This document shows positions 10,866 through 35,259 of a stretch of 64,000 nt of DNA, one piece after another. The notes below the pieces were generated by a model. The model saw only the letters and a program-made list of their open reading frames with translations. It had not been told where the DNA came from and did no database searches. This stretch comes from Bacillota bacterium. GTDB lineage: Bacteria; Bacillota; Dethiobacteria; DTU022; UBA8154. A program made the position numbers and the translations under genes. Location of the stretch: NCBI GenBank assembly GCA_012728375.1, contig JAAYFF010000025.1, positions 13,741 to 77,740 of the forward strand, in the 5' to 3' direction. Numbering within the stretch: position 1 is the stretch's first letter; the number at the start of each line of letters is the position of its first letter.

Positions 10866-10938
10866 GGAGATTGGCTGTGTTATCCGGTTTAAAGTCTACC
10901 ATTTTTAGAAGTGTTCAAGATTAGAAGGAGGGATTTTT

Positions 10939-12387
10939 TTGCACGAATATGAAACCGTAATCGGACTGGAAGTTCATGTGGAACTGTTGACCGATACGAA
11001 ATTGTTTTGCGGATGCAGTACCGCCTTTGGAGCCGAACCGAATACGCAGGTCTGCCCAATATGCCTGGGCCTTCCCGGAGGTACACTGCCTCTGTTAAAT
11101 AAAAAAGCGGCAGAATTTACCATTAAAGCCGCTTTGGCGCTCAACTGCGAGATTGCTCCAAAGATTGCTTTTGACCGGAAAAATTATTTCTATGCGGATT
11201 TGCCCAAGGGCTTTCAGATTTCTCAATATTTTTATCCCATGGGGAGAAATGGTTATATAGAATTCCTGGTTAATGGAAAAACAAAAAGAGTCGGTATTCA
11301 CCAGCTCCACCTGGAAGAGGATACGGGCAAGCTTTCCCATATTGGGGACGACATTATCTCTTCTCCCTCCAGCAGGGTTGATTTTAACCGGGCCGGAGTG
11401 CCGCTGATGGAAATCGTCTCCGAGCCGGATATTCGATCTGCAGAAGAGGCACGGCTTTTTCTGCAGAAACTGCGCTCCATCATTCGTTACCTGGACATTT
11501 CGGATTGTAAAATGGAAGAGGGCTCCATGCGTTGCGACGCCAATATCAGCATACGCCCCGTTGGCTCCACTGAGTTTGGGAAGAAAACGGAGCTAAAAAA
11601 CATGAATTCCTTCCGCTCAGTTTATCGCGGTATAGAATACGAGGCAGAGAGGCAACGTTCCGTTGTGCTTTCGGGAGAAAGCGTTATTCCCGAAACCAGG
11701 CATTGGGACGAAGCCAAGGGTGTGACCCGGGCAATGCGCAGCAAGCTTGTTTCGGCAGATTATCGCTGTTTCCCTGATCCCAATATTCCACCCTATCCTG
11801 TTACTGAAGAATGGATACAAGAAATTAAAAAGACTATTCCCGAGCTTCCTGACGAGCGCTACAAGCGTTTAACAGAAGAGCACGACCTTCCGTCTTCAAC
11901 TGCAGAAGTGCTCACCAGCTCAAAAGAGTTGGCTGATTTTTATGATGCCGTCCTCTCCGTTCACAATGAGCCCAAAACGGTCAGCAACTGGATTGTAAGC
12001 GAGTACCTGGGCCTTCTCAACGCAGCAGGCATGGATATTACGGAATCAAAGATAACGCCCGCCGGGCTCGGAAAGCTTTTGCAAAGCATCGCAAAAGGTG
12101 AAATAAGCGGAAAAATAGGGAAAACAGTCTTTGAAGAGATGTTTAACACCGGCGAAGATCCGGCGCTGATTATTGAAAAAAAGGGGCTCAAGCAGATATC
12201 CGATACAGATACCCTCTCCCGGATTATCTCCGCGGTCCTGGCCGCAAACCCGCAATCTATTGAAGATTACCGCAAAGGTAAAAAAAGAGCCATGGGCTTT
12301 CTGGTCGGTCAGATTATGAAAGAAACAAAGGGTCAGGCCAATCCACAGCTCGTCAACAAGCTGCTCATGGAGGAGCTGAACAAGTAG
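10939..12387 (+). CDS. gatB: Aspartyl/glutamyl-tRNA amidotransferase subunit B
   Basis: MHEYETVIGLEVHVEL is the canonical GatB N-terminus. TTG start with GAAGGAGG RBS. 482 aa. Confidence 0.9.
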   Translation: MHEYETVIGLEVHVELLTDTKLFCGCSTAFGAEPNTQVCPICLGLPGGTLPLLNKKAAEFTIKAALALNCEIAPKIAFDRKNYFYADLPKGFQISQYFYPMGRNGYIEFLVNGKTKRVGIHQLHLEEDTGKLSHIGDDIISSPSSRVDFNRAGVPLMEIVSEPDIRSAEEARLFLQKLRSIIRYLDISDCKMEEGSMRCDANISIRPVGSTEFGKKTELKNMNSFRSVYRGIEYEAERQRSVVLSGESVIPETRHWDEAKGVTRAMRSKLVSADYRCFPDPNIPPYPVTEEWIQEIKKTIPELPDERYKRLTEEHDLPSSTAEVLTSSKELADFYDAVLSVHNEPKTVSNWIVSEYLGLLNAAGMDITESKITPAGLGKLLQSIAKGEISGKIGKTVFEEMFNTGEDPALIIEKKGLKQISDTDTLSRIISAVLAANPQSIEDYRKGKKRAMGFLVGQIMKETKGQANPQLVNKLLMEELNK

Positions 12388-12455: not shown

Positions 12456-13169
12456 TTATTCAAGTATCTCTCCCTCTATGCTGATAACAACAACTTCCAG
12501 GGGTATTTGTTTGCCGCTGCCTTCTATTGCCTGTTCCAAAAGGCGCTTTAATCCGGAACAGCAGGGCACTTCCATAATAAGAGCGGTTATTTTTTGTATT
12601 TCGTTATCCTTGATAATTTTAGTTAGCTTTTCCAGGTATATTATTGTATTGTCAAGCTTGGGACAGCCGACGCAAAGGGCCGTCCCTTCGCCCAGAAAAG
12701 TACGGTGAAAATCGCCATAGGCAAAGGGAACGCAGTCCGCAGCAACGATAAGATTTGCTTCCCGAAAAAATACGGCATTTGTCGGAAGGAGGGCCAGTTG
12801 TACCGGCCATTGGCGCAGAAGGGAAGGTGCCCTTTCCCCTTTTTCAATTGGAAAAGGACGGCTGGTGGTTCTTGCCAAAGAGGAAGGACATCCGCTGACC
12901 GGAGAGCAAAAGTCCAGCGCTGTTGCCTGCATGCTGCTTAGATGTTTCTTGACTGCTTCCTCATCGTACGCCTCAGCATCACGCTCCACAATGGTGATTG
13001 CCCCGTGCGGACATTCCTTCAGACAGTCTCCCAGGCCGTCACAGAGTTTTTCGGCAATAAGGCGCGCTTTTCCATCAATAATTTGTATTGCTCCCTCGTG
13101 GCAGGCCGGGATACATATTCCGCAACCAGTGCATTTATCTTCATCAATATGCACAATTTTCCTTTTCAA
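12456..13169 (-). CDS. 4Fe-4S dicluster-domain protein, uncharacterised
   Basis: N-terminal CTGCGICIPACHEG and CDGLGDCLKECP ferredoxin motifs, plus a Cys-rich C-terminus (CVGCP, EVPCCSG). TTG start with GGGGGAGG RBS. Confidence 0.6.
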   Translation of the reverse strand: MKRKIVHIDEDKCTGCGICIPACHEGAIQIIDGKARLIAEKLCDGLGDCLKECPHGAITIVERDAEAYDEEAVKKHLSSMQATALDFCSPVSGCPSSLARTTSRPFPIEKGERAPSLLRQWPVQLALLPTNAVFFREANLIVAADCVPFAYGDFHRTFLGEGTALCVGCPKLDNTIIYLEKLTKIIKDNEIQKITALIMEVPCCSGLKRLLEQAIEGSGKQIPLEVVVISIEGEILE

Positions 13170-13228
13170 AATGTCCTCCCCCTAAAGTTTTTAAAATTAA
13201 AAAAGTTTTGGATATACGGGAATGGAAA

Positions 13229-23487: not shown

Positions 23488-24558
23488 GTGAAAAGATCAA
23501 AGCAGAGAAAAAGGCACGTACAGGTACTGATGATCTTGTGTATCTGTTTGCTCTTTTCTGCTTTGGGTTGCAGACCCGGCAATCCTGACGATGACAAGAC
23601 AACAATAACCCGTTTGCTAATGGATACCCGGGTTGACCTGACCCTGTATGGAATTGACAAGAAAACTTCTGAACGCATTGCCGGTGAGGTATTTGCCGAA
23701 ATGGAACGGTTGGAAAGCATTCTTAGCCGGACAGTTGCGGCAAGCGATCTTGACCGAGTTAACCGGGCAGCAGGCGAGGAGTGGGTTGATGTAAGCCCGG
23801 AACTTTTTTTCGTCCTCAGCAAAGCACTGGAATTTGCCGAACTGTCGGGAGGGGCCTTTGACCCCACAGTTGCCCCCCTCTTAGAACTCTGGGGATTTGG
23901 GACAGCTCATCCCAGGGTGCCTTCCGGAGAGGAGCTGCAAAAGGTTCTTCCCCTGATTGATTACCGACTGGTTGAGCTGGACGAAGACCGGTCAGCGGTT
24001 TTTCTGCCCCTTAAAGGGATGAAGCTTGATTTAGGCGGGATTGCTAAAGGTTTTATTATTGACCGGGGTATAGAGGTAGTCCGGAAATTTGATGTTCAGG
24101 CTTCTTTTCTCAATGCCGGCGGCGATATACGCATATATGGGGAAAAACCCTCCGGCGAGAGGTGGACGGTTGGTATACAAGACCCCAATGTTAACGGGAA
24201 GGGTTCAGATAGAACCTATATTGCCGCCCTCCGGCTGGAGGGGGAGGGCAGCGTCGTTACTTCGGGCGATTATCAGCGATTTTTTAAAAAAAACGGGAAA
24301 AAATATCATCACATTTTAAATCCTGCAGATGGAAAGCCGGCGCGTCAGTTAACAAGCGTTACCATTGTTGCAGGCGATGCCCTGACGGCAGACGCCCTGT
24401 CAACCGCTGTTTTCGTTTTGGGAAGGGAAAAGGGCCTGTCTTTGCTCAAACATTTTCCCGGGGTAGATGGTGTGATTGTTGACCAAGAGGGCAAAGTGCA
24501 TTATTCACCCGGCTTGGAGGATAAAATACAGTTAAATGCCCAGCAGACGGGGAGATAG
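23488..24558 (+). CDS. apbE: FAD:protein FMN transferase ApbE (lipoprotein)
   Basis: Lipobox LFSALGC. The ApbE family pattern is present (TRLLMDTRVDLTLY, DLGGIAKG, SGDYQRFF). GTG start with AGGAG RBS. Confidence 0.85.
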   Translation: MKRSKQRKRHVQVLMILCICLLFSALGCRPGNPDDDKTTITRLLMDTRVDLTLYGIDKKTSERIAGEVFAEMERLESILSRTVAASDLDRVNRAAGEEWVDVSPELFFVLSKALEFAELSGGAFDPTVAPLLELWGFGTAHPRVPSGEELQKVLPLIDYRLVELDEDRSAVFLPLKGMKLDLGGIAKGFIIDRGIEVVRKFDVQASFLNAGGDIRIYGEKPSGERWTVGIQDPNVNGKGSDRTYIAALRLEGEGSVVTSGDYQRFFKKNGKKYHHILNPADGKPARQLTSVTIVAGDALTADALSTAVFVLGREKGLSLLKHFPGVDGVIVDQEGKVHYSPGLEDKIQLNAQQTGR

Positions 24559-24597
24559 AAGTTGACAATACATCCGAGCTGGGTTTGGAGATGAGGA

Positions 24598-25137
24598 ATG
24601 GAACAGCTGCGGACTTTAAAAATGGTATACCTGGCCATTCTTGTCGCCTTTGCTGTAGGCGTGCATACAATAGAAGCCGTTCTTCCGGTGCCGCTGCCTG
24701 TTCCAGGAGTCAAGCTCGGGCTGGCCAATATTATTACGCTGCTGACCATTGTTTTGTACGGAACCCGTAGCGGCCTTTTGGTCGCCTCTTTGCGCAGCGT
24801 TCTGGGAAGCCTTATTTCGGGAAGTTTTTTAGGCTTCGGTTTTTATCTCAGCTTTGGGGGATCTGTGTTAAGCTGTCTGGCCATGGGAGGCATGATGGAG
24901 CTGTACCGCAGGAAAAAGATAACGCTTATTTCGGTGAGTATTGCTGGTGCGGTTGTTTTTAACGTTGTCCAGCTGGTATTGGCATCGATGCTGGTACAAA
25001 ATATCCTCTTATTTAGGGGATATCTTCCCTTTCTGTTGTTGCTGTCGGTGCCGACCGGTCTTTTTACCGGCATGGCTGCAATTTATCTGGCGAATGTCAT
25101 CCGGCGCATCGGCAGGCCGAATATTTTTTCGTTCTGA
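24598..25137 (+). CDS. Gx-transporter / heptaprenyl diphosphate synthase component I-like membrane protein
   Basis: 179-aa polytopic membrane protein (…PVPLPVPGVKLGLANIITLL…) of the type commonly found next to apbE and FMN-binding genes. Confidence 0.55.
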   Translation: MEQLRTLKMVYLAILVAFAVGVHTIEAVLPVPLPVPGVKLGLANIITLLTIVLYGTRSGLLVASLRSVLGSLISGSFLGFGFYLSFGGSVLSCLAMGGMMELYRRKKITLISVSIAGAVVFNVVQLVLASMLVQNILLFRGYLPFLLLLSVPTGLFTGMAAIYLANVIRRIGRPNIFSF

Positions 25138-25179
25138 ATAAGTTCTAGCAAATTCTCCTGGCCAGTTGGAGGTGTACGC

Positions 25180-25746
25180 TTGAAAAGATTGATTCTAGCT
25201 TCCGCTTCGCCGCGGCGGGCTCAATTGCTGGAGCAAATTGGGCTGAAGTTTCTCGTGGTTAAAAGCGGTTTTTCGGAGCCGGGGATTTACAGTGAAGAAG
25301 ACGTAGAAGAAATGGCCTTGGCCAAAGCCAGGTGGGTCCGCAAAGACTTTCCGGGAGAATTTATCCTCGGGGCTGATACAGCTGTGTTCAATGGGGGAAA
25401 AGCTTTAGGCAAGCCCCGGGACGAGAAGGAAGCTGCGGAAATGTTGAGATCCTTAAGCGGGCGGGTTCACAGCGTCATTACCGGCCTGGCTTTAATAAAA
25501 GACAACCGGGAAGTTACCGTAAGGGAGAAAACTCTTGTTCGAATGCGCCCACTGGATGAAGAGGAAATTAGGGCATATGTTTTTTCAGGTGAGCCGATGG
25601 ACAAGGCAGGGGCGTATGGCATTCAGGGCAGGGGAGCTCTTTTTGTGGAAAAGATAGAGGGTTGTTATTTCAATGTCGTAGGCTTGCCGCTGTCCAGGCT
25701 TGCCGCAATGCTGAAGTCGGAAGGCTTCCCCATCTGGGGAAATTAA
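25180..25746 (+). CDS. maf: Maf-like nucleoside triphosphate pyrophosphatase (septum formation protein Maf)
   Basis: MKRLILASASPRRAQLL...GADTAV...YGIQG. TTG start with GGAGGTG RBS. Confidence 0.85.
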   Translation: MKRLILASASPRRAQLLEQIGLKFLVVKSGFSEPGIYSEEDVEEMALAKARWVRKDFPGEFILGADTAVFNGGKALGKPRDEKEAAEMLRSLSGRVHSVITGLALIKDNREVTVREKTLVRMRPLDEEEIRAYVFSGEPMDKAGAYGIQGRGALFVEKIEGCYFNVVGLPLSRLAAMLKSEGFPIWGN

Positions 25747-25816
25747 GGAGGAGATTGCCGCGGAAAAGAAATTAACCATCAAGGACCTGCCCCTGGAAGA
25801 GCGCCCAAGGGAGAGA

Positions 25817-26449
25817 ATGAGGGAATTAGGTGCGGGGAGTCTTTCCAATGCAGAATTATTGGCTATTATTTTGCGGACAGGCTATCGGGAAGAGAGCGTT
25901 GTCCATTTGGCTGAGCGCATTCTGGCTCAGGCCGGAGGATTACGTTTTTTACCGGATTTGACTCTGGAAGAACTGCAAAAGATTAAAGGGGTCGGCCTGG
26001 CAAAAGCAGTACAGATAAAAGCTGCCCTGGAGTTGGGCAGGCGCATGGTTTTATCCCTGAAGCCGGAAGGCATATCCCTTACTTCTCCCTGGGAAGTTGC
26101 CAATTTCCTCATGGAAGAAATGCGTTATTACAATAAAGAGTACTTTAAGATTGTTCTTTTGAATACGAAAAACCAGCTTATTTCTCTGGAAGATATCTCT
26201 GTGGGAAGTTTAAATTCCTCTATTGTTCATCCCCGGGAAATTTTTCATTATCCAATTAAAAAAAGCGCTGCAGCCATTATTCTGGTACATAATCATCCCA
26301 GCGGTGATCCGACTCCAAGCCGGGAAGATCTTGATGTAACGAGAAGGCTTGTGGAAGCCGGAGAAATTTTAGGAATAAAGGTGCTTGATCATATTATCAT
26401 CGGAGAAGGTAAACATTTAAGTTTTAAAGAAAAGGGACTAATTCCCTAA
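25817..26449 (+). CDS. radC: RadC-like JAB-domain protein (UPF0758)
   Basis: HhH (GVGLAKA) plus a JAMM motif (HNHPSGDPTPSREDL). The conserved N-terminal segment KLTIKDLPLEERPRER lies in frame upstream of ATG 25817 with no canonical start (see findings). Confidence 0.8.
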   Translation: MRELGAGSLSNAELLAIILRTGYREESVVHLAERILAQAGGLRFLPDLTLEELQKIKGVGLAKAVQIKAALELGRRMVLSLKPEGISLTSPWEVANFLMEEMRYYNKEYFKIVLLNTKNQLISLEDISVGSLNSSIVHPREIFHYPIKKSAAAIILVHNHPSGDPTPSREDLDVTRRLVEAGEILGIKVLDHIIIGEGKHLSFKEKGLIP

Positions 26450-26471
26450 AGAAGGAAAGGGGAAGCATTAG

Positions 26472-27506
26472 ATGCCGTCTTTTTCTAAATTTTTTTCAAG
26501 AGATATCGGGATTGACCTTGGCACTGCCAATACCCTTGTTTATGTTAAAGGAAAAGGTATCGTCCTGAGGGAACCATCCGTAGTGGCCATTCGGAAGGAT
26601 ACGGGCTCTGTTTTAGCGGTGGGAAATGAAGCTAAAAAAATGATTGGCAGGACCCCGGGAAATATTATCGCCATCAGGCCGATGAAGGATGGAGTTATTG
26701 CAGATTTTGACGTAACACAGACTATGTTGCGGCATTTTATCAGCAGGGCCTATCGTCGGCGCACTGTGTTCCTGCCCCAGGTAGTGATCTGTGTTCCCTC
26801 GGGTGTTACGGAAGTCGAGAAAAGGGCAGTGCTGGATGCGACAAAACAAGCCGGGGCCAAAGAAGCATTTCTGATTGAGGAACCTATGGCTGCAGCAATG
26901 GGAGCAGGCCTTCCTGTTGAGGACCCGACGGGAAGCATGATTGTTGATATAGGAGGCGGGACAACGGAGGTAGCTGTTATTTCCCTCGGCGGTATTGTTA
27001 CCAGCAAGTCAATCCGCGTTGGCGGAGACGAACTGGATGATGCCATTATCAACTATATTAAAAAATCTTACAATTTAATGATCGGGGAACGTACAGCAGA
27101 AGAGATCAAAATGCAAATCGGTTCAGCCTATCATGCCGAGCAGGAAGAGCATTTTGAAATTCGTGGCAGGGATCTGGTCAACGGCCTGCCAAAGGTATTG
27201 ACCATCAGCTCCTGGGAAATCGAAGGTGCCCTTTCCGAACCCGTTGCCGCGATTTTAGAAACCGTAAAAACAACTTTGGAGCGAACGCCTCCCGAACTGG
27301 CAGCTGATTTAATGGAAAAAGGGATTGTCATGTCAGGGGGAGGCTCGCTCTTAAAGGGCCTGGATAAACTTATTTCCGGGGAAACAGGTATGCCCGTTTT
27401 CCTGGCGGAAAACCCTCTGGACTGCGTTGTTCTCGGAGCAGGAAAAGCCCTCTCCGCAATAGATCTTTTAAAACGGGTTTCTATTTCTCCTAAAAGAATA
27501 TTTTGA
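26472..27506 (+). CDS. mreB: Rod shape-determining protein MreB
   Basis: Actin-fold motifs ([20 protein letters not shown]). Confidence 0.9.
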
Positions 27507-27543
27507 GATATAGTTGCGGTTTTCGGGGAGGCGGTGTGAAGCG

Positions 27544-28419
27544 GTGAATCCGTCCGTCTGGAGAGTAGTTGCCATCCTGGGGGTTGGGGTTATACTTTTA
27601 GCACTTTCTCTGGTTTTTTTTACAGGGGAAGATCTTGCCCATGTTAATCTGGTTAAAGATACGTTTTTAACAGGCTTTTCACAAGTGCAGGGATTTGTTG
27701 CCAGGTTAGGAGCGAGTACGGCCGGTTTTTTTCAGGGGATTTTTGATTTCAGGAACCTGCAGGAAGAAAACAAGGAATTGCGGAAAGAATTGGCTGAGAG
27801 GGAAAATCTTCGCCATCAGATCCTGGAACTTCAAAAGGAAAATTACCGGTTAAGAGGAATGCTTGATTTTAAAGAACGAACAGAATACGAGCTTCTTCCG
27901 GCCGAAGTAATTGCCAGGGATCCCAGCAACTGGTTTGAGACGATTACGGTTAACCGGGGGGCCCTTCACGGCGTCAAAAAAAACATGCCCGTAATCACTT
28001 CCCAGGGGCTGGTGGGGAATATTCTTAAAGTATCGAGGACTTCTTCAAGGGTTCTGCTTCTTACGGACTCCAGGCGTGCTGTGAGCGCTCTGGTCATGCG
28101 TTCCCGGGAGCCCGGCGATGTAGGTATCGTGGAGGGTTCTTCCGGAGAAAGCGCTTCTTTGCGCATGACCAATCTTCCGCCGGAAGCCAATATCCAGCCT
28201 GGTGATACCGTTATTTCTTCAGGTCTGGGAGGTATTTTCCCCAAGGGTTTGGTAATTGGTACTGTCCTCGAAACCGGACTTGATCAGTATGGGTTGCTTC
28301 AGCAAGCGGTTGTTCTTCCTGCAGTTAATTTTAACCGTTTGGAGGAAGTTTTTATTGTCATGGACTTTCCTCATGAGAACGAGGAGCAGGAAGCAGAGGG
28401 GCACGAAAATGAAGGGTAG
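27544..28419 (+). CDS. mreC: Rod shape-determining protein MreC
   Basis: N-terminal TM, a coiled coil, then the beta-barrel domain (GLVGNILKVS, GLGGIFPKGLVIG). GTG 27544 with GGGGAGG RBS is preferred. The track start is TTG 27514. Confidence 0.8.
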   Translation: MNPSVWRVVAILGVGVILLALSLVFFTGEDLAHVNLVKDTFLTGFSQVQGFVARLGASTAGFFQGIFDFRNLQEENKELRKELAERENLRHQILELQKENYRLRGMLDFKERTEYELLPAEVIARDPSNWFETITVNRGALHGVKKNMPVITSQGLVGNILKVSRTSSRVLLLTDSRRAVSALVMRSREPGDVGIVEGSSGESASLRMTNLPPEANIQPGDTVISSGLGGIFPKGLVIGTVLETGLDQYGLLQQAVVLPAVNFNRLEEVFIVMDFPHENEEQEAEGHENEG

Positions 28420-33966: not shown

Positions 33967-35259
33967 CTAAGCAAAATCCCTGTTTAATTTCCTGTGCTTA
34001 AAAGTTTTGGTGCGGTTGGCATAATCCTCGACAATATGGCCGTTTCCTATTAGTTTGTATTTATAGATCACCAATCCGTCAAGGCCTACCGGCCCCCTGG
34101 AGTGAATCTTGCCGGTGCTTATCCCAACTTCCGCGCCGAATCCATAGCGGAAGCCGTCACTAAAGCGCGTCGAACAGTTCCAAAAAACATTCCCCGAGTC
34201 CACATAATCCATAAAACGGAGAGCCCTTTCTCTGTCCCCGGTTATGATGCTGTCCGTGTGTCCTGATCCATAGGTATTAATATGCTCAATAGCTTCCTCC
34301 AGCGTGGATACGATTTTAATGGACAGTTTGTAATCGAGGTATTCTGTTTTCCAGTCCTCAGGGGTTGCAGGGGCGACGGGAATTATAGACTGAGTCCGGG
34401 GGCATCCGACTATTTCCACCTTCTTGCTGTCCAGCAAATTTTTTAATGCGGGTAAAAAAGCAGGCGCGATACTTTCATGCACCAGAAGGGTCTCTGCAGC
34501 ATTGCATACGGCCACGTACTGGGTTTTTGAGTCAACTACGATTTTTGCAGCCATATTCAGATCCGCCTTCTCATCCACGTAACAGTGGCAGATCCCGTCT
34601 GCATGGCCCAAAACAGGAATTCGCGAATTGTCCATGATATAACGTACAAACTCATTTGAACCCCTGGGAATGATAAGGTCAATATAGCCGTCCATTTTAA
34701 GCATATCATTGACATCGGATCTTGTTTCCAGAAGTGCCGCCCAGTACTCCGGAATGCCGGCCTTCATTGTTGCATCTAAGATAACCTCGGCCAGGATGCG
34801 GTTGGTTTCCATGGCTTCTGATCCACCTTTTAGAAGAACACCGTTTCCGCTTTTAAGGCAAAGGGTTGCTATTTGTACAAGTGCATCCGGTCTCGATTCA
34901 AAAATGACCCCAATGACCCCAATGGGGCTGGTTACCTTGTACAGCTCCAACCCCTCGTCCAGCTCGGTAGAGAGCAAGGTTTTTCCCACGGGATCTTCAA
35001 GCTTAATCAGATCGTGGATGCCGTCCACCACATCCGCGATTTTCTCTTCATCAAAATTTAACCTTTTCAATAACGGCGCAGATAAATTTTCTTTCTCGCT
35101 CCTGTCCAGATCCAGACGGTTAGCTTTTATTATTTCGTTTTTTCTTTCAGTTAAAGAAGCGGCAATAAACTCAAGGGCTTTATTTTTAACTTCTGTCGTT
35201 GCCGCGGCCAGCCTGATTGAGGAATCCTTAACCCGGCGGGCAAGCTCATCCATGTTCAT
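33967..35259 (-). CDS. proA: Gamma-glutamyl phosphate reductase
   Basis: 430-aa aldehyde-dehydrogenase-fold ProA (…VCNAAETLLVHE…, catalytic Cys context). Confidence 0.9.
   Translation of the reverse strand: MNMDELARRVKDSSIRLAAATTEVKNKALEFIAASLTERKNEIIKANRLDLDRSEKENLSAPLLKRLNFDEEKIADVVDGIHDLIKLEDPVGKTLLSTELDEGLELYKVTSPIGVIGVIFESRPDALVQIATLCLKSGNGVLLKGGSEAMETNRILAEVILDATMKAGIPEYWAALLETRSDVNDMLKMDGYIDLIIPRGSNEFVRYIMDNSRIPVLGHADGICHCYVDEKADLNMAAKIVVDSKTQYVAVCNAAETLLVHESIAPAFLPALKNLLDSKKVEIVGCPRTQSIIPVAPATPEDWKTEYLDYKLSIKIVSTLEEAIEHINTYGSGHTDSIITGDRERALRFMDYVDSGNVFWNCSTRFSDGFRYGFGAEVGISTGKIHSRGPVGLDGLVIYKYKLIGNGHIVEDYANRTKTFKHRKLNRDFA

Follow-up and report, generated by a model that had tools for sequence, protein, structure and literature searches.

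A clade-conserved, non-canonical translation start of radC in Dethiobacteria, possibly at a GCG codon

Conserved weak start codons that go together with a strong or extended Shine-Dalgarno (SD) sequence have been described in Bacillota and E. coli, for infC (AUU or AUA) and, in Staphylococcus aureus, for cvfC1 (AUU) and ccpN (AUA) (PMC13009471). Ribosomes of S. aureus make use of SD pairing that extends towards the start codon, and conserved AUU and AUA starts accompany this type of pairing (PMC13009471). Here we describe the radC gene in a stretch of 64,000 nucleotides (nt) from a member of the Dethiobacteria (Bacillota; assembly GCA_012728375.1, contig JAAYFF010000025.1, positions 13,741 to 77,740 of the forward strand), which is referred to as the window and numbered from its first nucleotide. 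This gene has a real, clade-conserved and systematically mis-annotated non-canonical start, and it belongs to the known class of weak starts with strong SD sequences as a variant of that class. As in infC, cvfC1 and ccpN, a canonical start is missing in front of a conserved N-terminus and this state is kept among relatives; the SD sequence is strong, with pairing predicted to extend towards the start if the assumed 16S rRNA tail is correct; expression is likely to be low or tunable; and automatic gene callers misplace the start. Unlike in those three genes, where AUU or AUA is properly spaced, the only AUU of radC is located 2 nt from the SD core within the predicted helix, and the properly spaced slot is occupied by GCG, a codon not recognised as a start, with ACG, UCG, CUG or GUU taking its place in relatives. 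A near-cognate codon (AUU, AUC, AUA or CUG) at a normal spacer distance is absent from radC of the window and present, as CTG, in three related loci (L012, L021 and L165; loci of relatives are given as L numbers).

The most likely reading of the locus, to which we assign a probability of about one half, is weak SD-directed initiation at GCG 25760. In E. coli reporters, codons that are not near-cognate initiate with methionine at about 0.01–1% of the AUG level, and a strong ribosome-binding site driving methionine initiation from almost any codon, as in those reporters, is the mechanism that we propose for GCG (10.1101/063800). Unlike the engineered reporters, radC would be a natural gene conserving such a codon, of which no description was found in the literature searched. 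Translational coupling, by comparison, normally still uses ATG, GTG or TTG. Like coupled genes, maf and radC are adjacent and appear to be co-transcribed, with the maf stop overlapping the radC SD; unlike in coupled genes, the maf stop has no conserved position, and maf is missing upstream in some non-canonical relatives. In plant organelles, starts are created by C-to-U editing, for example ACG to AUG in rpl2, psbL and ndhD (PMC9845219). The radC genes resemble this situation in having a genomic NCG where relatives have NUG, and C-to-U conversion would yield all three canonical starts. Editing of mRNA from C to U is not known in bacteria (PMC9845219), and at radC it is no more than a formal possibility.

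Coding sequence upstream of the first ATG

The radC frame is closed by TGA at 25712–25714 and open from 25715, just as the first-pass annotation of this DNA had placed it, and the 34 codons that lead up to the first ATG (25715–25816) include no ATG, GTG or TTG. Codons 25745–25816 encode KEEIAAEKKLTIKDLPLEERPRER, which is followed by ATG 25817. The in-frame codons previously listed as candidate starts (ATT 25754, ATC 25778, CTG 25787 and CTG 25793) are all present, as is the SD sequence AAGGAGGAG at 25745–25753. The maf stop (TAA 25744–25746) does adjoin the radC start region and overlaps AAGGAGGAG. The chance that 21–34 codons contain no canonical start is about 0.2–0.35, so that this absence is not improbable by itself; the excess over chance is the conserved coding sequence under purifying selection that precedes the first ATG.

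That the region upstream of ATG 25817 encodes the N-terminus of a RadC was borne out by family models. The Pfam domain UPF0758_N (PF20582) is matched over its full profile (1–77 of 77; 100 bits; nucleotides 25778–26011), beginning with the isoleucine encoded by ATC 25778, whereas a protein starting at ATG 25817 matches profile positions 16–77 only (73.7 bits); the extension adds 26 bits. Only with the upstream region is the UPF0758 N-terminal domain, including its [IL]KD[LM]PxxERPRE motif, complete. The protein scores 272.6 bits with the NCBIfam RadC equivalog NF000642 (cutoff 180) and contains a complete RadC-like JAB domain (PF04002; 160.6 bits; profile 1–121 of 121; nucleotides 26078–26440), while PDB entry 2qlc matches the JAB domain only (residues 122–229). 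The JAB metal motif HxHPxGD (H177, N178, H179, P180, G182 and D183) is invariant in 36 homologues. In the same set, the region 5' of ATG 25817 encodes six residues that are invariant and two that are nearly so, the invariant ones (I, P, E, P, R and E) being located in the extension at 25763–25816. An AlphaFold model (mean predicted local distance difference test score of 82) places the methionine encoded by ATG 25817 inside a predicted helix (16–23).

For comparison with relatives, junction DNA was fetched from genome collections, metagenome collections and individual contigs. The first E of EERPRER (window 25796) served as the anchor for numbering codons, which makes ATG 25817 codon +7. Codons −14, −13 and −12, corresponding to ATT 25754, GCC 25757 and GCG 25760 of the window, are called columns A, B and C, and a junction is termed non-canonical if codons −14 to −9 contain no canonical in-frame start. 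Among 20 non-canonical relatives, synonymous (pS) and nonsynonymous (pN) differences amount to 0.86 and 0.10 in codons −11 to +6, and to 0.68 and 0.15 in the gene body (codons +7 to +60); in the window's own subclade the values for codons −11 to +6 are 0.73 and 0.07. Columns A–C (pS 0.31, pN 0.41 in the 20 relatives) differ in this respect from both the extension and the gene body, which points to constraint on nucleotides rather than on amino acids. The N-terminal extension of RadC, which evolves in the manner of the gene body, is thus translated and under purifying selection, and since it evolves as coding sequence its initiation must be non-canonical.

One further sequence, represented in three assemblies (L086, L173 and L174), has ATA at codon +7 and its next canonical start 21 codons past the anchor, so that a non-canonical start upstream of the motif is required there as well; in L089, TTG takes the place of ATG 25817. 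Orthologous maf–radC junctions were compared, and orthologues do not start at the ATG equivalent. We therefore consider it very probable, in agreement with one of the alternatives given in the first-pass annotation, that a non-canonical start upstream of the conserved motif is required, the extension being under purifying selection.

It is improbable that synthesis of the extension relies solely on a codon further downstream (ATC 25778 or CTG 25787), or that ATG 25817 is the start and the conservation upstream of it has a non-translational cause. Codon −6 is almost always ATH, and gene callers pick ATG 25817 or the equivalent of Leu −3 (the 210- and 220-residue calls); yet ATC 25778 and CTG 25787 are 26 and 35 nt away from the SD, and a protein initiated at ATG 25817 would lack the six invariant residues and begin inside the predicted helix. 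A comparison of L169 with L172 fits a downstream start, as codons −10 to −7 are relaxed (pN/pS 0.91) and codons −6 to +6 are not (0.03). Codons −10 to −7 nevertheless carry a coding signature, with threonine encoded by ACG, ACC, ACA or ACT, exchanges among leucine, isoleucine and valine, and a pN of 0.00 in six lineages. The sequence shared by L086, L173 and L174, with no canonical start at codon +7 or in the codons that follow it, likewise argues against this explanation.

Conservation and annotation of the non-canonical state

Non-canonical junctions account for 27 of the 36 distinct maf–radC junction sequences in the Dethiobacteria clade, and RadC identity among these 27 falls to 66%. L161, a separate assembly whose RadC is 96% identical, reads ATT GCC ACG at columns A–C; L001–L003 read ATT GCN GCG, the junction type of L002, a metagenome-assembled genome (MAG) of Dethiobacter alkaliphilus, being AGGAGGTAG ATT GCT GCG. 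RadCs from outside the clade have a canonical start 11–16 codons before EERPRER in every case. A neighbor-joining tree suggests that the non-canonical state is ancestral for the clade. Loss of a start codon by mutation had been put forward as one explanation; a recent loss does not agree with a state of this age. Its counterpart, loss through a sequencing error, is contradicted by the independent assemblies that share the arrangement (L161, L001–L003 and many others).

We therefore give next to no credence to an error of assembly or sequencing, or to a pseudogene in decay; beyond the missing start codon itself, nothing speaks for these explanations. The arrangement recurs in many independent assemblies from different samples, the radC frames are intact in all 23 sequences checked (227–229 codons), and a pN/pS of about 0.1 indicates strong purifying selection. 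A homopolymer indel was considered separately and rejected: one additional A in GGAAAAGAAA would bring TTG 25755 into frame, but L161 and L001–L003 have the same frame as the window, and the ATT-AAG lineages have no TTG at this place.

The closest homologues are proteins from Dethiobacteria MAGs that were called with 209–211, 219–220, 196 or 227–236 amino acids, and these varied lengths indicate that gene callers disagree on the start. Proteins of 209–211 residues beginning at the equivalent of ATG 25817 are found in 12 of the top 120 homologue clusters. Of the 120 RadC clusters in public databases that are most similar, at least 23 are called too short by 10 to 35 residues (209–211, 219–220 and 196 amino acids); such calls remove six invariant residues and part of the predicted helix, and gene callers bound to canonical starts will repeat this truncation across the whole clade. 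One RadC at NCBI (P0038; 222 amino acids) begins with MKELPLEEQP, that is, at codon −6, a position where the related locus L013 has ATA. This annotation may already use a non-canonical ATA start, or its contig may have ATG at this position.

Shine-Dalgarno geometry and the choice of the start codon

The duplex between the radC SD and the 16S rRNA tail is predicted at −14.1 kcal/mol, which ranks 13th among the 66 open reading frames (ORFs) of the window. Duplexes were modelled with the usual Bacillota 16S tail, an assumed tail with which the recurrent GGAGGTGA in the strongest SDs of the window is in accord. With this tail, non-canonical relatives reach predicted values of −11 to −23 kcal/mol, compared with −7.5 to −14 kcal/mol for most of the canonical ones. 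The predicted helix runs through G-AUU in most non-canonical relatives and leaves a 3-nt spacer before column C; ATT, GTT and ATC at column A all preserve the predicted pairing. L171 has a perfect complement of the 16S tail, GGGGGUGAUU, followed by AGA and then TCG, and L163 shows the same extended-SD layout with GTG at column C. An upstream ATG in L011 and an upstream GTG in L171, both at codon −15, were rejected as starts and are read as SD bases, since they either abut the SD complement (UGAUU), at a distance of 0 nt, or fall within it.

Among 30 SD-bearing genes of the window, start codons follow the GGAGG register at distances of 7 nt (n = 11), 8 nt (n = 4) and 9 nt (n = 5), which places 20 of the 30 at 7–9 nt. 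The same range is preferred in B. subtilis, where spacings below 4 nt are poor (PMC10084748). In radC the spacing after GGAGG is 2 nt for ATT, 5 nt for GCC and 8 nt for GCG. Its layout, GGAGGAGATT-gcc-GCG, can be set beside those of gatB (GGAGGGATT-ttt-TTG; 10927–10941, plus strand, TTG at 10939) and proA (GGAGGGATT-gcc-ATG; 35271–35257, minus strand, ATG at 35259), two genes of the window whose starts are confirmed by full-length family models. The same hexamer ATTGCC precedes the start slot in proA (GGAGG-G-ATTGCC-ATG) and radC (GGAGG-AG-ATTGCC-GCG). The AGGNAT extended-SD motif, which was defined in S. aureus, is part of the element GGAGGGATT of gatB and proA.

The three columns behave differently in the 27 non-canonical junctions. 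Column A is ATT in 17 of them, GTT in four, TTT in two, and ATC, ATA, AAG or GCG in one each; G followed by [A/G]T[T/C] is kept in 21, and the preceding base is G in 25. Column B varies freely among relatives (GCN, AAR, GAG, AGA, CAG or TAG). Column C is GCG in 19, CTG in three, ACG in two, TCG in two and GTT in one, and every one of these codons is a single substitution away from a canonical start; GCA, GCC and GCT were not seen. The third base of the GCG set is invariant, which holds for none of 37 four-fold degenerate control columns of radC. Where 23 of the 27 junctions have an NCG codon (GCG, ACG or TCG) at column C, six canonical relatives have GTG (L163) or ATG (L010, L071, L014, L018 and L166). 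Canonical codons or CTG arose several times at column C (L163, L166, L165, L012/L021 and the L010/L071/L014 group); a single origin is seen at column B (L004/L162), another, within the SD, at codon −15 (L011), and none at column A.

The main alternative is translation from AUU 25754–25756, an infC-like near-cognate start yielding Met-Ala-Ala-Glu-Lys-Lys with GCC and GCG as ordinary alanine codons; it is possible but in our view rather unlikely. As a weak start AUU is established: its level in E. coli is about 4% of that of AUG (PMC3643588), and in Bacillota it occurs together with strong SDs (PMC13009471). The distance of ATT 25754, which the first-pass annotation listed as directly following the SD, from the SD core is far from the 7–9 nt of this genome and falls into the range that is poor in B. 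subtilis, and the codon probably belongs to the SD helix. At column A the commonest codon is ATT, and ATT, ATC and ATA together account for 19 of the 27 junctions, but in the remaining eight lineages, which have GTT, TTT, AAG or GCG, the extension is still under selection. Six lineages that combine GTT, TTT or AAG at column A with GCG at column C show a pN of 0.00 and a pS of about 1.08 in the K-K-L-T codons, and four of these six have no canonical start upstream. In L002 and L003 an in-frame TAG directly precedes ATT, and the frame opens exactly at this codon; in L169/L170 and L172, by contrast, the maf stop TAG is in frame at column B, directly after ATT, which therefore cannot start radC in these loci. 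In the sister lineages L004 and L162, which have GTG one codon downstream, ATT became ACT; on the other hand, canonical relatives (L163, L010 and L071) likewise have ATT, ATA or GTA after the SD, and the triplet is thus not specific to loss of the canonical start. A change from ATT to ATG was never seen among relatives, and an AUU start would leave the invariant third base of GCG unexplained.

The codons proposed earlier as starts are in frame, but GCG 25760, which is favoured by both comparison and geometry, had been omitted from that list. Taking into account the coding and selected extension, its conservation throughout the clade, the SD geometry and the behaviour of the individual columns, we infer that GCG itself may be the decoded start, for which we see even odds. 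Somewhat more tentatively, and short of an even chance, the NCG codon in the SD slot (GCG, or ACG and UCG in relatives) could be the genuine radC start wherever it occurs, kept across a clade in which RadC identity drops to 66%. The NCG codons would then form a start family one step from NUG that is read directly by the initiator tRNA with the help of an extended SD helix. Within the same proposal, C-to-U editing of the mRNA to NUG is highly improbable.

Initiation at GCG could proceed as follows. The 30S subunit would pair with AAGGAGG (25745–25751), and pairing would probably continue through GAUU (25753–25756), so that the 3-nt spacer GCC would set GCG 25760–25762 in the P site. The initiator tRNA would read this codon inefficiently: position 1 would be a G·U wobble, position 2 a C·A mismatch and position 3 a G-C pair. 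A low-abundance protein would result, beginning with Met-Glu-Lys-Lys-Leu-Thr-Ile-Lys-Asp-Leu-Pro; relatives with ATG at column C have an N-terminus of equal length. The low expression might be aided by ribosomes terminating at maf 13 nt upstream.

Several points weigh against initiation at GCG. ATT at column A is itself conserved, and no other near-cognate codon lies close to the SD in this window. In the window's subclade, column B has undergone third-position changes only (GCC, GCA and GCT; two to three events), which also favours AUU since it fits a translated alanine. The relaxed codons that distinguish L169 from L172 suggest that these two loci may start further downstream, at the Ile codon −6, and they provide no proof of GCG use. 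Column C of L167 is GTT. A single transition from GCG to GTG would create a canonical start and was seen once, so that persistence of GCG requires selection for weak expression. There is no documented natural GCG start codon, and GCG was not measured separately in the E. coli reporters. The output expected from GCG is very low: even ACG, at about 0.7–1% of AUG, is about sixfold weaker than AUU in E. coli (PMC3643588). Finally, the extended SD helix through GAUU, although probable, is a thermodynamic prediction made with the assumed 16S tail.

If GCG is decoded, radC would to our knowledge be the first natural, conserved case of bacterial initiation outside the set of single-mismatch codons. 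It would likewise provide a test case for the extent to which an extended SD helix can stand in for codon-anticodon pairing in Bacillota. Although one transition would repair it, the very weak start of this widely conserved gene of unknown function has persisted for a long time, which argues that a low RadC dosage is selected.

Synthesis of the extension might instead depend on maf, either because terminating ribosomes resume without a proper start codon or because frameshifting or readthrough creates a Maf-RadC fusion. We regard this as very unlikely. In the window's subclade the SD is overlapped by the maf stop, which is located 10 or 11 nt upstream of the ATT column; in L011, L017 and L164 the stop overlaps columns A/B, and in L169 and L172 it is in frame immediately before GCG. 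Over all relatives, however, it is found anywhere between −120 and +26 nt, in all three frame relations. Most loci without an upstream maf have canonical radC starts, but L086/L173, L089 and L167 lack maf and are non-canonical nonetheless, and the correlation with maf loss may go back to one or two events in the tree. Neither a promoter nor a terminator signal was found between maf and radC, as would fit coupling; a slippery site with an upstream stimulator is absent too, and in-frame stops between maf and the extension (L002, L003, L006 and L013) speak against a general fusion. A Maf-RadC fusion or a fixed termination/re-initiation geometry is thus excluded as the general mechanism, while coupling to maf may assist initiation in this window.

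Other explanations were sought with negative results. RNAalifold predicted no conserved pairs (0 over 14 junctions), and Rfam had no match at 25100–26500. Genome-wide relaxation of initiation was rejected, as radC is the sole ORF of the window with a strong SD and no properly spaced canonical start; the other ORF flagged in this search (12721–13183) runs antisense to a longer one and lacks a Pfam match. The window contains no tRNA genes that might bear on an unusual initiator tRNA, and a literature search on radC start codons returned nothing relevant.

Features of the locus and its neighbourhood

Table 1. Features at the maf–radC junction (window coordinates).
Feature	Position	Strand	Remarks
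maf coding sequence	25180–25746	+	188 codons, TTG start, TAA stop; Pfam PF02545, 205.6 bits, profile 1–186 of 187
SD core AAGGAGG	25745–25751	+	GGAGG at 25747–25751; same place in all clade members
GAUU, containing ATT 25754–25756	25753–25756	+	Predicted to extend the SD helix towards the start by pairing with 5'-GAUC of the 16S tail
GCC spacer, 3 nt	25757–25759	+	Between predicted extended SD helix and start slot; codon 2 (Ala) if AUU starts
GCG, proposed non-canonical initiation codon	25760–25762	+	SD-defined start slot; coding signature begins directly after it
5' extension EKKLTIKDLPLEERPRER	25763–25816	+	Beginning of the UPF0758 N-terminal domain; omitted by gene callers
First in-frame ATG	25817–25819	+	Internal Met codon; start of 210-residue database calls
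Proposed radC coding sequence	25760–26449	+	229 codons plus TAA; 25754–26449 if AUU starts
Out-of-frame (+1) mini-ORF TTG CCG CGG AAA AGA AAT TAA	25755–25775	+	6 codons; stop TAA at 25773–25775

The mini-ORF of Table 1 has its TTG 3 nt from GGAGG and ends 2 nt before ATC 25778. Equivalent mini-ORFs ending with TAA or TGA are present in all ATT-GCN relatives (L001–L003, L090 and L161), and a similar one is found in L167. The TTG is confined to ATT-GCN lineages and the stop comes from a Leu, Ile or Val codon followed by Thr; the mini-ORF is probably incidental, a by-product of ATT followed by G and of these codons.

The order of genes at 23488–28419 is conserved and comprises ApbE, Hpre_diP_synt_I, maf, radC, mreB and mreC, followed by mreD in relatives. 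As in other Bacillota, radC heads a cell-shape operon. In L169 (1438–1446), L170 and L172, where the junction reads GAG GAG GAG ATT TAG GCG, maf and radC are in the same frame with a single TAG between them, and readthrough of this codon would yield a Maf-RadC fusion. The maf gene has been lost upstream of radC in L163, L167/L168, L173/L174, L010, L071, L014, L015 and L018, where Hpre_diP_synt_I directly precedes radC, and L171 (951–1142) has kept only a Maf remnant of 63 amino acids. With the exception of the three non-canonical maf-less loci named above, maf-less loci mostly have a canonical radC start. The lineage of L167 and L168, found on more than 20 contigs, has the junction GAG GAG ATA CAG GTT GGG GAA AAA TTA, with GTT at column C. 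An out-of-frame TTG in these loci would give MGKKLTIKDMP, like L015, if the A-run were one A longer; the junction is identical in two metagenomes, so that there is no obvious error.

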